64,000 nucleotides of DNA, taken from Escherichia coli. Its GTDB lineage: Bacteria > Pseudomonadota > Gammaproteobacteria > Enterobacterales > Enterobacteriaceae. Shown here piece after piece: positions 35,494 to 41,621 of this stretch. Location: the NCBI RefSeq assembly GCF_044324875.1, contig NZ_CP172185.1, one strand, 5' to 3'. The notes beneath the pieces were generated by a model. The model saw only the letters and a list, made by a program, of their open reading frames with translations. It ran no database searches and was not told where the DNA came from. The translations under genes were made by a program, and so were the position numbers. Positions within the stretch are counted from its first letter, which is position 1; every line of letters begins with the position of its first letter.

Positions 35494-36005
35494 TTGATGG
35501 TAACTCTGACCATTAACCGTAAACCGCAGGGTATTTTCAGTAAATCACCGGCAACGCCGCTGCAGGATAAAACGGACACAGCATACAAAATGAAGGCCGG
35601 TGACCAGATACCACAGTTGAACGATAAACAGAAACCTGCTGATAAAACACCGTGGCGACATGACAAAACGCCAGAGCAAAAACCGTAAGCGCATTATTCG
35701 TCTTGTGGAACTCTGGCCTGAGTCATTCAACCGGGAAAAAAACAAAACCACTTAAAGTGGGGATACCTGACGACCTGATACAGGATATCGCCATCCGAGA
35801 ACTGGCGTTTGGCGCTGGTACATTACATGCAGCAGTGGCGTCTTATGTGCAGTCTCCGTGCTATTACCGTGCGTTAATAGCAGGTGGCGCCCGTTACAAC
35901 CTGAACGGTCAGCCGTGCGGGGAAGTGACACCACAGGAACAGAAAGAGGCAGAGACCCGTTTAATGATGCTGAATGACCGACGAAAAGACAGAAAACCTC
36001 GTTGA
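35494..36005 (+). pseudogene. ProQ/FinO-domain RNA-chaperone gene, disrupted by frameshifts
   Basis: Three frames carry consecutive FinO-like pieces. The first is MMVTLTINRKPQG.. (compare FinO PVLTLKRKTEG). The second is ..KRKRIIRLVELWPESFNREKNKTT*. The third is ..KPLKVGIPDDLIQDIA..YVQSPCYYRALIAGGARYNLNGQPCGEVTPQE (compare ProQ RPLKIGIFQDL..RVDLDGNPCGEL). The second frame switch coincides with an A7 run at 35736-35742. Confidence 0.7.
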
Positions 36006-36022
36006 CTGCACAACAGCGCTGT

Positions 36023-36848: not shown

Positions 36849-37085
36849 TCATGCTGCTGCTCCTCGTGATTCCTCAATTCGCTGCTGCATCCACTGCTCC
36901 ACTTCACTTTTGTACCAGCGGCTGCTGCGCCCCAGTTTGATGGGTTTAGGGAAATGGCCTTCACTGATCAGCTTGTAAAACCATTTGTCGGTCATACCAG
37001 TGAAGCTGGTGATGTAGTTCATGTCGATCAGGGGATCGTCGGCACGCAGCAATACGCTGTCGTGACCTGTCATTGAGGTCAACAT
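36849..37085 (-). CDS. alpA: AlpA-family phage/island regulatory protein (MerR-like HTH)
   Basis: 78 aa. ..LIDMNYITSFTGMTDKWFYKLISEGHFPKPIKLGRSSRWYKSEVEQWM.. has the typical AlpA-family layout. The start may be the internal ATG at 37073. Confidence 0.8.
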   Translation of the reverse strand: MLTSMTGHDSVLLRADDPLIDMNYITSFTGMTDKWFYKLISEGHFPKPIKLGRSSRWYKSEVEQWMQQRIEESRGAAA

Positions 37086-37153: not shown

Positions 37154-37756
37154 TCAGAGCTGGCCTGCTACGGGATACCAGGGATTACCGGCGAGGTAAC
37201 GGGCTTCCGGATCGCGCACACCACGACGATCGCGGGCGAAATCACTGAACGCCCATATCAGCTCTTTGAGTCTCTCTTCGCAGTCCGGTGAACAACTGTC
37301 CAGCACCACATCCCGGGTTATCTGTTTCTGGTACGGTGCTGCTTCACCCGGTGACGCGAAGCCCAGTACGTTGCTCCAGGCATCCAGAATCAACCGGTCC
37401 AGCTCAGGGCCGTCGAAATATTCCTGTCTGACGCACAGCACCACGTGGTATTCCGGTTTTTCAGGATGACGGGTCAGGAGCCAGCAGAGGTCGCGTCCGG
37501 GGGTTGCATTCATCAGCGCACTGACGGTTTCGATAAAGGCCATACCGAACCAGGTTTTTCTGTCGCTGAAGATGTTGCCATGTTCCCCCGGCAGACGAAG
37601 CAGGATCCGCCGTATCCTGGAGCCGGACTGCTCGCGCAACACACGGTTGAGAACGCCGATGATTTTGTTCTGATAAGATGGCCAGAAGGGCGCCATGCTA
37701 TAGTCGAAATAAGGGATAGCATTCATAAGATATGTTCCGTTATACGCAGCCCACAA
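37154..37756 (-). CDS. YagK/YfjJ-family (inovirus Gp2-like) protein, paralogue 2
   Basis: 200-aa ORF from a non-ATG start. ATG at 37726 (MNAIPYFDY..) is the more likely start. It contains ..IRRILLRLPGEHG.. and ..PEYHVVLCVRQEYF... Confidence 0.65.
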   Translation of the reverse strand: MWAAYNGTYLMNAIPYFDYSMAPFWPSYQNKIIGVLNRVLREQSGSRIRRILLRLPGEHGNIFSDRKTWFGMAFIETVSALMNATPGRDLCWLLTRHPEKPEYHVVLCVRQEYFDGPELDRLILDAWSNVLGFASPGEAAPYQKQITRDVVLDSCSPDCEERLKELIWAFSDFARDRRGVRDPEARYLAGNPWYPVAGQL

Positions 37757-38082: not shown

Positions 38083-38814
38083 TCACCTGCCATCCAGCAG
38101 ACGCCCCGGCCCACGACTGCAACCATAATTACGTTGCCCGGAACCGTCATGCTGCTTCGTCTCATATTTCACGAGATAACTGGCTCTGTTCCGGGCTTTC
38201 TGCAGCGCTTCCACATCACCACGCTTGATCCAGAGAACAGCGGCTTCACCCGGCTTTTTTTCTGAAGCCTTCCTGGTATCAGAACATCCACCCGACAAAG
38301 GCGTGTCATCGGAAGAAGGGCGAGCATCAGACGATGCTGGTTTACGGGAAGGCGTCCACCTGGAAAAATGGACCAGGCCATCGCCTTGCCAGGCCTCAAG
38401 ATGCAGGGCGCTGCACCATGCCTCCAGGATCATCGTCGCCAGCGAAGATGGTTCGCTGAAATCCCCTGGCGAGCACCAGGTATCTTTGTTGAGCAGCAAT
38501 ATCACGTGATAATGTTTCCTGCCTTTTTCCTTGCCAAACTCCCGACACCAGAAATAACGCAGAGTGGTTGCACGCACACGCTTGTTGGCACGTCGTTTTT
38601 TCCGCTGGTAAGCCTGGATTTTGGCTTTCAGGGATTCGAAAAAACGAGAAATCACCGCTGAATCCGGATCGGGATCCATGATGGTGACAGGCATATACTC
38701 AGGGAAACGTAAATCCACCCGGATTAACGAGACGGCACGGTGCTGCGACAGGGCACTGTCGAGAAGGCTGTCAAAACGGGATAACCAGTAAGCATTGTGT
38801 ATTGGTTGATTCAT
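38083..38814 (-). CDS. YagK/YfjJ-family (inovirus Gp2-like) protein, paralogue 1; it retains an H-Y-H (HUH-type) motif
   Basis: 243 aa with GGAG 8 nt upstream. It has ..VSLIRVDLRFPE.., GRKHYHVILLLNKD (H101-Y-H103, DNA 38506-38514) and the C-terminal RASYLVKYETKQ. Confidence 0.8.
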   Translation of the reverse strand: MNQPIHNAYWLSRFDSLLDSALSQHRAVSLIRVDLRFPEYMPVTIMDPDPDSAVISRFFESLKAKIQAYQRKKRRANKRVRATTLRYFWCREFGKEKGRKHYHVILLLNKDTWCSPGDFSEPSSLATMILEAWCSALHLEAWQGDGLVHFSRWTPSRKPASSDARPSSDDTPLSGGCSDTRKASEKKPGEAAVLWIKRGDVEALQKARNRASYLVKYETKQHDGSGQRNYGCSRGPGRLLDGR

Positions 38815-40397
38815 GATGAGAGATCTCCGTTGATTTGGATTGACTTCACATCATTAATCACCGCGGTAAAACTTTACGGCATCATGTCATTAAGCAATGC
38901 TACAACTCTCTGATTAAGAGTGATTGAAACGGAACAAACCATCCCGGAACGAAAAGATAATCCTGCACACAGCAGCAAAACACGCAACAACAGCATGAAT
39001 GGATTTAAAAACGACATGGACGACGAGAAAAGCCTGAAGGGAAAAGGATCCACAGAACATTCGAACAAAACACCAGAAACGCAACCAGAACGCTTCCTGG
39101 CAATGCAAATCAACAACAACGCCAAAACCTACAGCTTAATCACACAACTCAATCACGAATGCGAATGACACGTTTAAAACCTGTTTACAGATAACGCCGT
39201 AACACGATCATCCCCATCACCATCAGAATCGATTTTCTCATCCCGAAAATGTTACGTTTCACTACGCACCATAAAAACGATTAACCATCGATAACGTAAA
39301 TCTCATCTGAATCAAAAAACCAAAACCAATCATCACACTTTCGCAATGCAAGAAGAAAAACCACATCATGACGAAAACAATGACCTTACATGAAAAAGCA
39401 AAACGTCAGGAATCGTTAATGCCTCAATCTGATTGTTATCAAAACATCCAGAAAGTCGTTTAACAGAATCGTCGTAAGCACATCGAAAAGAACGTCAGAT
39501 CACCTCAGGAAAGTTCGGGTTGATTTAGCGTAAAGATACTTTTCTCAGCTTAACGTCGAAACACAAACCAAAAACCACAAACAACCAAAGCTCAGGAAAG
39601 GTTAAACGTCACATCAGTAAAATCGAATAGCAGATTGATTGCTTAAACAGGAAAGATTGTTTTACAGCAGCATTAAACTGATTTAGTTAACGTAAAATCA
39701 GAACTGACAGGTTTACTAACTTGGATGTGTATCAGTTCAAAAATGTGTACAGCAATGCGTAATGAAACACATTTAAAGGAGATTAATGGGAAAAGTGTGT
39801 AAATGCGTAAACATGCACTAATGAATCACTGAAGGAATACATACAAAACGACTTAATGAAAACATAAAAGGACCTAATGGAAAAGGTGTATATAATACCA
39901 TATCCGACATTCTCAACATCTTAAGACATCCATGCAGACTGAATGTTGGTTTCAGTTTTTCACGGTAAGCATGAATCTTTTCTGTTCAAAAGCAGAGCAG
40001 ATTTACTCTGGAATTATTTTTCTTACTCCGTATTCTGTACAGCAAAAACTTGTGCTAACTTTACAGCAAACCATCATAATCAGCGTCTGTAGTCCCATCG
40101 CTTTACCCCATGAAAGTGAATCCATATGATGTGAGAGAGATAAGTCATCGTATCCGGTAAACACTGCTTACTATAACATAAGATCATTCAGTCAGTTTTA
40201 TCTCTGAACTGACGATTATGGCATGCTCATTTATATGGCTCACAGAGGAGTGTTATTATCCGTAAGCTTTAATCATCAAATCACATGACCATACCAAACT
40301 GGCGCTATATCAGCTCATTTGACGCTCATTCCCTTTAGATTTCTTTATGTGTTTTTTGTCGATAATTAAAATGTAATATAAATTTAATATTTTCACA
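38815..40397. other. 1.58-kb ORF-poor tract with strong strand composition skew and recurring short words
   Basis: The only track ORFs are 38874-39168 (three overlapping, low-complexity) and a 65-aa one at 39932. The + strand of about 38,900-39,720 is conspicuously A/C-rich. See the findings for word positions. Confidence 0.6.
39760..39883 (+). repeat. five spaced TAATG(A/G)(A/G)A words
   Basis: TAATG starts at 39760, 39784, 39819, 39854 and 39875, giving spacings of 24, 35, 35 and 21 nt. The contexts are cgTAATGAAAC, atTAATGGGAA, acTAATGAATC, ctTAATGAAAA and ccTAATGGAAA. Confidence 0.5.
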
Positions 40398-41621
40398 TCA
40401 TAAACACCATTTAAAACCATCATCCTGAACATCATACAACAATATATTTTTACTAAAGCATGAATTGTATATTTCTATTAATTCAGGAAAATTATCAGGA
40501 TTCACCTTTAAATTCAACTGAATGTTACACTTAATTTCACTCAGCAGTTCTTCATGCGTGGATTTTATTATCCCTTTATCATAATCTATAAATACACACA
40601 TGTTTTTCATGAATTCAAACCCTTTTCCTGTATACAGTTTGATGAATGCCACAAGAGCAAACATTTCAAGATGCAGCCATAATGCCACGTGAGTTTTTCG
40701 CAAAGTATAAAAAATTGAATTCGCCACTTTTTTACTTATTGCTCTTTTGTACTGTGAGTGCGCCAGATTCAGTAGTGGCAATTCTCTCTCGATAAATGAA
40801 AGTGAAAAAGGCGGGTAAATTGATGTCGGAAATATTTCAGGTCTTATGATATTTTCGATTTCCACCATAAATCTATCCATAGAACGAAAATCATTTTCTT
40901 TTTTTATTCTGGTATAGAGACCGCCTTTATTCCTTACTGCGACTTTTTTTCGTGCTATCCCCCCCAACATTTCCTCTAATTGTTTATTTATCTTCGTATC
41001 ATTAAATACAACCATTCTTCTTATCATCCTGGGAAGGATGATAATATCAGAGCTTGAATCACTTGAACGGCAATTATTATTGATCCATGCAACTTCAAGT
41101 TGAAGTATCGGAACATTAAATTCTCTGGGGTTAATAACTCTCTGATATTGTTTTTTGTATGCGTTTTCATTAAGATATTCTCTGCTGTAGAGAAACTTAT
41201 AGCAATATAATCTGACAATATCCTTTATGTAAGATTTAAATGAGTCACCTGTAACAGATATATTTTTTCTTCTCAGTAACTCCTGTGTATTGAGCCATTC
41301 CCGTGACCGGAGTACTCCATTATGAAGACTTTTTCTTACTTGCTTTGAATTGCGCAATTGATGTAATATTTTTGCGTCCTCAACAATTCTCTTTCCCGTT
41401 TGATTTCTTGCAGCATCTATTACTCTGTCAAATATCTCCCGGTCCAGACTTTTGTCATATTTACTGATTATACGACAAATATTCCTGACCCGACGGTTCT
41501 CTTTATTTCGTTTCCATAACTGATAATGATCATCACATAACCTCAGGGCATTTGCCTCATCAAATTCTGAAACAGGATTGCTGCATTTTTTATTCCGACA
41601 GATACCTTTGTTTTTAGCCAT
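40398..41621 (-). CDS. hypothetical 407-aa protein, AT-rich orphan with an N-terminal Cys/His cluster
   Basis: This is the only long ORF here, and its Lys/Asn/Ile-rich composition matches the very AT-rich DNA. The N-terminus is MAKNKGICRNKKCSNPVSEFDEANALRLCDDHYQLWKRNKENRR (C-x4-C-x16-C-x2-H). I recognise no family. Confidence 0.7.
   Translation of the reverse strand: MAKNKGICRNKKCSNPVSEFDEANALRLCDDHYQLWKRNKENRRVRNICRIISKYDKSLDREIFDRVIDAARNQTGKRIVEDAKILHQLRNSKQVRKSLHNGVLRSREWLNTQELLRRKNISVTGDSFKSYIKDIVRLYCYKFLYSREYLNENAYKKQYQRVINPREFNVPILQLEVAWINNNCRSSDSSSDIIILPRMIRRMVVFNDTKINKQLEEMLGGIARKKVAVRNKGGLYTRIKKENDFRSMDRFMVEIENIIRPEIFPTSIYPPFSLSFIERELPLLNLAHSQYKRAISKKVANSIFYTLRKTHVALWLHLEMFALVAFIKLYTGKGFEFMKNMCVFIDYDKGIIKSTHEELLSEIKCNIQLNLKVNPDNFPELIEIYNSCFSKNILLYDVQDDGFKWCL

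Follow-up and report, generated by a model that had tools for sequence, protein, structure and literature searches.

Upstream of an inovirus Gp2-like gene in a genomic island of Escherichia coli lies a 1.58-kb tract without credible coding capacity. The part of it that island variants share, from position 38815 to about 40035, appears to be a cis-regulatory region together with an untranslated leader of about 1.07 kb. Both would serve the minus-strand operon formed by the Gp2-like gene, its paralogue and an AlpA-family gene, and we put the probability of this reading at roughly 55%. Positions refer to the window, the whole stretch of 64,000 nucleotides (nt) of contig NZ_CP172185.1 that was analyzed; it represents an E. 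coli genomic island with 99.7% identity to strain LH50-c. The complete tract (38815-40397) is flanked by the start of the gene for the 243-residue YagK/YfjJ (Inovirus Gp2) protein and by the stop of a 407-residue open reading frame (ORF), both on the minus strand.

Of 5426 complete E. coli genomes, 1877 gave a megablast match to the tract, nearly always on the chromosome and in up to seven copies per genome. Plasmids of E. coli yielded only four matches, all of them island fragments, and phage records yielded none. K-12 has no copy in CP4-57 or CP4-6 and was rejected as a reference; its yagJ gene is unrelated. Scanning metagenome contigs with a 27-mer added 64 loci, and a scan of genome contigs with a single protein returned two close copies only. 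From genomes and metagenome loci we compiled the 35 non-redundant copies (below 98.5% mutual identity) used for the comparisons below. Because the metagenome copies were retrieved through one shared 27-mer, conservation is biased at 39270-39296, but nowhere else. Decayed versions of the tract exist beside an intact majority, as indicated by insertions that interrupt it at two loci (L009 and L076) and by the loss of about 38787-39072, gene start included, at a third (L023).

Alignment of the island variants shows that only 38815 to about 40035 is common to them. The first-pass annotation had treated the 1.58 kb as one unit; the last ~360 nt (40035-40397) are instead present only in loci that also carry the 407-residue gene, and they are the island-specific 3' flank of this neighboring cargo gene. 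The order Gp2 gene, 1.5-1.75 kb without annotated genes, variable cargo and GTPase gene was seen in all four islands that were fetched. This layout, with the GTPase gene divergent, is kept in independent islands, the succession of Gp2 and AlpA genes is conserved among YagK/YfjJ-family loci, and the Gp2-like gene is intact in 50 of 53 full-tract copies. All three observations favor a regulatory region tied to the operon.

The distal end of the shared part carries two short motifs that recur upstream of distant family members. Here the upstream regions of K-12 yagK and yfjJ were compared with those of loci found through protein homologues of 37-43% identity, and motif significance was assessed against mononucleotide shuffles of these short regions. 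Motif A (ATAATTCCAGAGTAA, 40003-40017, minus strand) is a conserved upstream element with matches in six regions: yagK (13/15), yfjJ (12/15), L078 (13/15), L080 (13/15), L084 (14/15) and L082 (12/15). All are in sense orientation, each with a shuffle P of at most 0.043. Motif B (ATGTCGGATATGGTATTATATA, 39910-39889) shares 20 of 22 positions with L080, a Providencia-type locus encoding a protein of 39% identity, and it aligns with GATGTTGGATAGGTATTATATA upstream of yagK. It is recognizable, with 1-nt indels, in yagK, yfjJ, L078, L079 and L084, and GGTAATATA is found exactly in yfjJ, L078 and L084. The best alignments of the tract with distant family upstream regions all fall within 39889-40027, and for three distant regions the best local alignment lies at motif A. 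In every family locus motif A sits 50-107 nt upstream of motif B, and the collinear, sense-oriented arrangement of the pair in yagK, yfjJ and five other loci is a further point in favor of a regulatory module. Within the 64-kb window there are no additional copies of either motif or of the array word described below. A gapped scan of viral contigs for motif A followed by motif B proved too unspecific and was not used.

Motif B is probably a promoter. Combined with a -35-like hexamer it forms a putative sigma-70 promoter on the minus strand (39889-39916), in which TTGAGA (39916-39911) and TATATA (39894-39889) are separated by 16 nt, within the 15-18 nt of this promoter class. A stricter promoter scan did not list the site, because its -10 hexamer ends in A. 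In K-12, genomic SELEX (systematic evolution of ligands by exponential enrichment) with RNA polymerase identified a constitutive sigma-70 site, TTTAGA-16-TATAAT, in the yagK-yagL spacer, flagged as H-NS-associated (Shimada et al. 2014, PMC3946193). The SELEX hexamers bracket motif B of yagK, and the homologous positions in the window are TTGAGA-16-TATATA. The promoter scan found no sigma-70 site in the proximal 5' untranslated region, which also speaks for a distal start. From these two observations, minus-strand transcription would begin at about 39882, within the repeat array, and produce a leader of about 1,070 nt.

In most relatives motif B is found 79-343 nt from the start codon; L084 has a distance of 828 nt, and the E. 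coli lineage with the 243-residue protein one of 1,040-1,096 nt. Since motif B lies far nearer the start codon in most relatives, the window lineage appears to carry this module with a leader extended by about 850 nt. At locus L084 (1644-3000), whose protein is 42% identical, about 830 nt of ORF-poor sequence without strand skew separate motif B from the start codon, so that long leaders may have arisen more than once in the family. Upstream intergenic regions of YagK/YfjJ-family genes are in general long for bacteria, typically 450-750 nt.

Directly downstream of motif B lies a degenerate tandem array (39725-39888) of 12-13-nt units. The plus-strand unit is TTA(A/G)T(G/A)AAA(A)YAC with (A/C)GTGTAT interspersed, corresponding to a GTGTTTT-type unit on the sense strand. 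Through unit-sized indels the array varies between roughly 4 and 11 copies among 27 distinct variants, with repeat families spaced 13, 24-25 and 50 nt apart. Nowhere in the shared tract is conservation lower (identity 0.48-0.55, 26-31% gaps). A ATGTGTTT repeat cluster of similar kind stands 3' of motif B at the Providencia-type locus, and lineage-specific repeats follow motif B in YagK/YfjJ-family loci.

At the other end of the leader, the proximal 5' untranslated region (38815-38894, minus strand) is ultra-conserved, with an identity above that of the adjacent coding sequence. Mean pairwise identity across the tract ranges from 0.48 to 0.99; in the proximal region it is 0.99 and 0.90, the higher value applying to 38815-38854, compared with 0.935/0.958/0.894 at codon positions 1/2/3 of the Gp2 gene. 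In about a quarter of the matching genomes the first 187 nt of the query are the only part of the tract retained. A predicted hairpin of invariant sequence (38862-38804, minus strand) covers the translation-initiation region, pairing the Shine-Dalgarno sequence GGAG (38828-38825) and the bases up to the AUG (38814-38812). Its free energy is -19.6 kcal/mol (z -3.5), which none of 200 shuffles reached, and its sequence does not vary in the 35 copies. A survey of the family took in the K-12 loci L075 (37950-38230) and L003 (7396-7547) and the upstream regions of L078-L084. The ribosome-binding site (RBS) or start codon is paired in the minimum-free-energy fold of 8 of 10 members, and translation-initiation windows have z of -1.8 or lower in 7 of 10 genes across genera despite unrelated sequences. 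This suggests a predicted, family-wide translational restraint of YagK/YfjJ-type genes.

About 250 nt 5' of the start codon, the terminator scan placed a second element (39062-39101, minus strand), an attenuator-like hairpin at 39101-39072 followed by UGUUUUGUU. The G+C hairpin and U-tract of an intrinsic terminator are both present, with a weak stem (free energy -12.7, z -2.7). In 15 distinct sequences 96.7% of cells are paired, and one pair covaries between GC and AU (6 and 7 sequences), a result reached in 1 of 500 shuffles. Three G-U pairs make the hairpin specific to the minus-strand RNA. These two hairpins are the only local structures that pass the tests. The global fold of 38815-39720 is no better than shuffles (z +1.5 sense, +0.7 antisense), no compensatory pairs occur in 39897-40030 or 39215-39340, and the window has no Rfam match at gathering score. 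The sub-threshold matches to STnc550 (19.6 bits against 48) and HtrA are alignment artifacts. A long hairpin at 39215-39340 was rejected, since a single-sequence z of -2.3 is not accompanied by covariation, and no RfaH ops/JUMPstart element exists in the tract. A 5' leader of the YfjJ-like genes, one of the options raised at first reading, fits best, although it is not the globally structured leader envisaged there, as its supported hairpins are confined to the 3' end.

Between array and proximal leader extends a lineage-specific spacer (38900-39720) with a U/G-rich sense strand, and the A/C-rich plus strand pointed out by the first-pass annotation is borne out. Its plus-strand composition is A 0.41, C 0.235, G 0.156 and T 0.199, and no other 820-nt stretch of the 64 kb reaches its A+C content of 0.646 (mean 0.506, standard deviation 0.034, about +4 standard deviations). 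TA, ATA and TAT are strongly under-represented (TAT once against 13 expected), and the skew is near flux equilibrium and not decaying. Variable columns make up 55% of the spacer, and the transition fraction is 0.68 against 0.71 at third codon positions. Polarized transition rates, approximate because polarization is by minor allele, are strand-symmetric (G>A 0.35, C>T 0.32 per site), which led us to reject ongoing strand-biased deamination as the cause of the skew. Periodicity of 3 or 10.5 nt was not detected in the spacer, and A-tract phasing or curved DNA was likewise dismissed. An ancient internal duplication also found no support (self-alignment 23.7 bits, null 22.0 +/- 2.5).

No ORF of stable length is common to the 35 copies, which corroborates the initial impression that 38815-40397 lacks a credible ORF. 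A protein-coding gene or pseudogene was rejected for this reason, and because period-3 power is absent and indels are not multiples of three. A decayed yfjI-, yagL- or yagM-like gene was excluded as well, given no tblastn signal with YfjI, YfjJ, YagK, YagL or YagM and no codon periodicity. RefSeq annotates an 82-residue hypothetical protein here (WP_000573215.1, 38920-39168, plus strand); its frame is intact in part of the copies only, with lengths of 21-82 residues in 25 of 35. Since island variants do not preserve this frame, the annotation is probably an over-call.

With variability at the level of third codon positions, no periodicity, no stable ORF, no excess fold and its recurring words lost in diverged copies, the A/C-rich core resembles non-coding, unstructured sequence under neutral drift. 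One conserved island stands within it (39255-39322, CCATAAAAACGATTAACCATCGATAACGTAAA…ATCTGAATCAAAA), with runs of 32 and 18 near-invariant columns. It is identical in five E. coli island variants found by whole-tract megablast and hence free of anchor bias. The alignment of homologous islands called for at first reading shows 38815 to ~40035 to be shared, with one covarying pair and a core that evolves at about the synonymous rate.

The recurring words were among the features singled out at first reading. Their positions are nearly all as reported: AACGT occurs at 39293 (originally given as 39294), 39402, 39491, 39552, 39605 and 39689, four times as AACGTC; CAGGAAAG occurs at 39506, 39593 and 39648; and TAATGRRA at 39760, 39784, 39854 and 39875, the word at 39819 being TAATGAAT, which does not fit RRA. 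Their density had been considered beyond chance, and such eye-picked words do beat dinucleotide shuffles when tested post hoc. An unbiased 8-mer test, however, finds a maximum multiplicity of 3 against a shuffle mean of 3.0 and three 8-mers present at least three times against 1.9 in shuffles (P = 0.27), and repeated 6-7-mers show only a mild general excess. AACGT and CAGGAAAG are kept in the closer two-thirds of copies, whereas the diverged third has 1-3 AACGT, no AACGTC and at most one CAGGAAAG. Their spacing is irregular (89, 61 and 53 nt), and they behave like drifting sequence rather than conserved signals. The TAATG block holds up as part of the variable-copy array, in which TAATGRRA is one allelic flavor of the commoner TTAGTAAAA. 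An operator array, as the first-pass annotation had proposed, is plausible for this block directly downstream of the promoter-like motif, though not for the two drifting sets. The inverted repeat it had listed does exist (40190-40217, 7-bp stem) but is broken without compensation in a sister lineage and lies in the flank of the cargo gene.

Taken as a leader, the tract would restrain the Rep-like gene at promoter, elongation and translation. Transcription would start at the distal sigma-70 promoter in motif B, accompanied by the upstream motif A, and the first ~150 transcribed bases would form the variable-copy array, which might act as operator or roadblock for an island regulator such as AlpA, the HUH protein or H-NS. 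RNA polymerase would then cross the unstructured, C-poor, U/G-rich spacer of ~850 nt and reach the weak terminator-like hairpin at 39101-39072, before the leader ends in the invariant hairpin that would mask the ribosome-binding site and start codon. Rho loads on C-rich, G-poor, unstructured RNA. Given the skew, untranslated sense RNA might accordingly evade Rho, and antisense RNA would be open to it. The leader of the Providencia-type locus shares the C-poor, U-rich skew, a point in favor of the leader reading.

Several points weigh against this interpretation. Variable columns are more frequent in 38900-39720 than at third codon positions of the Gp2 gene (55% versus 46%), so that the bulk of the leader could be functionless filler evolving at or above the synonymous rate. 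The strand skew is not found in most relatives' leaders, and the Rho rationale for it is speculative. The promoter hexamers are imperfect, the spacer is 15 nt in most lineages, and the SELEX support concerns the paralogous gene yagK and not the gene of the window, whose promoter, start site and leader are predictions from sequence. Because the RBS hairpin never varies in sequence, thermodynamics and analogy are what speak for it, and covariation in 39101-39072 is limited to a single pair.

The most serious competitor holds that the tract is mostly functionless filler, in which an old skewed insertion or expansion parted an ancestral promoter module from its gene, now drifts neutrally and hitch-hikes in a successful island. 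The distal module may then be a remnant, and expression of the gene would depend on read-through or on an unrecognized proximal promoter. Divergence at or above neutral and a neutral-like substitution spectrum in 38900-39720, decaying words, the lack of periodicity, structure or internal duplication, the sufficiency of leaders of 79-343 nt in relatives and the tract copies with insertions or deletions (L009, L076, L023) are all in line with this. Bacterial genomes have a deletion bias, however, and a length of ~1.0-1.1 kb is kept in the 35 copies despite ~10% synonymous divergence. The far end still has both motifs A and B in intact form, the tract contains conserved islands and a covarying hairpin, and the extreme skew with its TAT/ATA depletion is at flux equilibrium. 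We consider this mostly-filler reading of the core unlikely; it is compatible with the leader explanation of both ends. An independent non-coding RNA gene on either strand is by far the least probable alternative. The moderately conserved 39895-40030 ends, in the window, in a plus-strand terminator-like hairpin, but this hairpin is not kept in other lineages, 39897-40030 has no consensus structure or compensatory pairs, and a plus-strand small RNA at 39900-40030 was rejected for lack of conserved structure. The long non-coding RNA entertained at first reading fails similarly, as no Rfam family reaches threshold (STnc550 and HtrA being artifacts) and global folds do not exceed shuffles.

Another alternative is suggested by the adjacent protein. 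The Gp2-like protein (38083-38814, minus strand) is annotated as "inovirus Gp2 family" and matches Pfam YagK_YfjJ_C (3.6e-37) and REP_ORF2-G2P (1.9e-10) as well as PHROG replication-initiation families. It carries Rep motif 1 (RVDLRFP), the HUH motif (HYHVILLL) and a conserved tyrosine (YLxK..TK), and its best Foldseek matches in the PDB are the nuclease domains of parvovirus NS1 and adeno-associated virus Rep, albeit weak ones (E ~1e-2). The tract could hence be a replication or nicking origin for this protein, with motif B as nick locus and the array as Rep-binding iterons, a function that may coexist with a promoter; the excised island circle would be replicated or mobilized as single-stranded DNA. 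The protein motifs, the family and fold matches, and a conserved motif beside lineage-variable repeats directly 5' of a rep-like gene, in a position comparable to that of the intergenic region before gene II of inoviruses, would all suit an origin. These features lend the iteron-origin option of the first-pass annotation no more than circumstantial support. On the other hand, no hairpin-loop or cruciform nick site of a rolling-circle double-strand origin was found in 39700-40040 on either strand, where DNA folding does not exceed that of shuffled sequence (z -0.2 and -0.46), and palindromes around motif B reach 4 bp only. Iteron-like repetition is lacking for AACGT and CAGGAAAG, while the array does consist of degenerate 12-13-nt units of variable copy number. 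Apart from the promoter, neither a DnaA box nor an AT-rich unwinding feature is present, motif B coincides with the yagK sigma-70 promoter, the fold matches stay at E ~1e-2, and we found no literature report of these islands replicating. We judge an origin to be quite unlikely. More doubtful still is the bolder version, in which motif B and the array are the nic and bind loci, the very common CP4-type islands of Enterobacteria become rolling-circle replicons or single-strand-mobilizable elements after excision by integrase and AlpA, and the skew mirrors their strand asymmetry.

Some observations concern the proteins of the operon. The E. coli lineage of the 243-residue protein has a disordered, Ser/Pro/Asp-rich insertion of ~48 residues (residues ~153-189, predicted local distance difference test below 50) that is absent from the ~190-residue relatives in other genera, and frameshifted variants of 214 residues circulate. 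Downstream of the Gp2-like gene on the minus strand follow a 200-residue gene (37154-37756) and the 78-residue AlpA-family gene (36849-37085). The former is a remote, degenerate paralogue of the Gp2-like gene (BLASTP E 0.003 around the HUH region) and has probably lost one metal-binding histidine, since EYHVVL replaces HYHVIL. An analogy to the Q-like antitermination by Pseudomonas aeruginosa AlpA was rejected, because the AlpA of the window is a 78-residue PF05930 protein and unrelated. The P. aeruginosa protein has eight helices and a 21Q-like fold, contacts DNA with residues 128-142 and uses the AlpA-binding element GGGACG between -35 and -10. The likeness of motif B (GTCG-N5-GGTA) to GGGACG-N5-GGTA is taken as coincidence, given that the two AlpA proteins differ. 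Within a few kb of the operon, a ProQ/FinO-family gene (~35494-36017, plus strand) is broken into two ORFs in the window and frameshifted in the LH50-c annotation; it is the relic of an island-borne RNA chaperone that might once have acted on the long leader.

On the other side of the tract, the 407-residue ORF (40398-41621, minus strand) is AT-rich (GC ~0.33) and matches nothing in Pfam, PHROG or NCBIfam. A second island lineage has an intact version with ~86% amino acid identity, whereas the annotation of LH50-c lists its near-identical copy as a pseudogene because of an internal stop. The ORF fills the variable slot between Gp2 module and GTPase gene, where other islands carry different cargo; in K-12 CP4-57, the cargo between yfjJ and yfjP is abpAB and rnlAB. 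We regard it as a candidate defense-type gene. To its right follow the divergent GTPase gene and then DUF932, antirestriction, RadC/JAB, DUF987 and YeeU/CbtA genes, a CP4-type module.

About one-third of complete E. coli genomes carry the tract beside an uncharacterized, mostly intact HUH-nuclease/AlpA operon. This operon is a core module of CP4-like islands, which also bear virulence, defense and toxin-antitoxin cargo. A cis module found across genera, a probable distal promoter and the attenuator-like and RBS-hiding hairpins offer handles on the silencing and induction of a potentially dangerous nuclease. For annotators, the analysis implies that drifting sequence makes up the greater part of the 1.58 kb and takes in two of the three word sets. 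The origin, if true, would define an unrecognized class of island replicon plus its cis site.

The tract can be compared with several known systems. Double-strand origins of rolling-circle plasmids such as pMV158 combine a conserved nic locus with replicon-specific direct repeats. These origins, and the region upstream of gene II in Ff inoviruses, are likewise ORF-free, lie 5' of an HUH Rep-like gene and join a short motif to variable repeats. In contrast to them, the tract has no nick-site hairpin, cruciform, packaging or minus-origin hairpins, and its motif is promoter-like. The repA or repZ genes of IncFII and IncI plasmids have long regulated leaders with RBS-sequestering hairpins. Similarly, the untranslated leader described here would end in a stable hairpin over the Shine-Dalgarno sequence and start codon of a replication-type gene, but it is several times longer and mostly unstructured, and no antisense RNA gene, leader peptide or pseudoknot was identified in it. 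Pseudomonas islands with intY, alpA, RadC, YqaJ and an inovirus Gp2-like gene, for which core element functions have been proposed (bioRxiv 10.1101/2024.08.29.610337), have the core set of Gp2-like, AlpA and RadC in common with the island of the window; that study describes no non-coding tract or cis elements. A further parallel is the promoter region of yagK in the K-12 CP4-6 cryptic prophage (Shimada et al. 2014, PMC3946193). Its downstream gene is likewise of the YagK/YfjJ family, and the order and orientation of motifs A and B agree with those in the window. There the module stands ~200 nt from the start codon, whereas in the window it stands ~1,096 nt away, with the array and the skewed spacer of ~850 nt in between.

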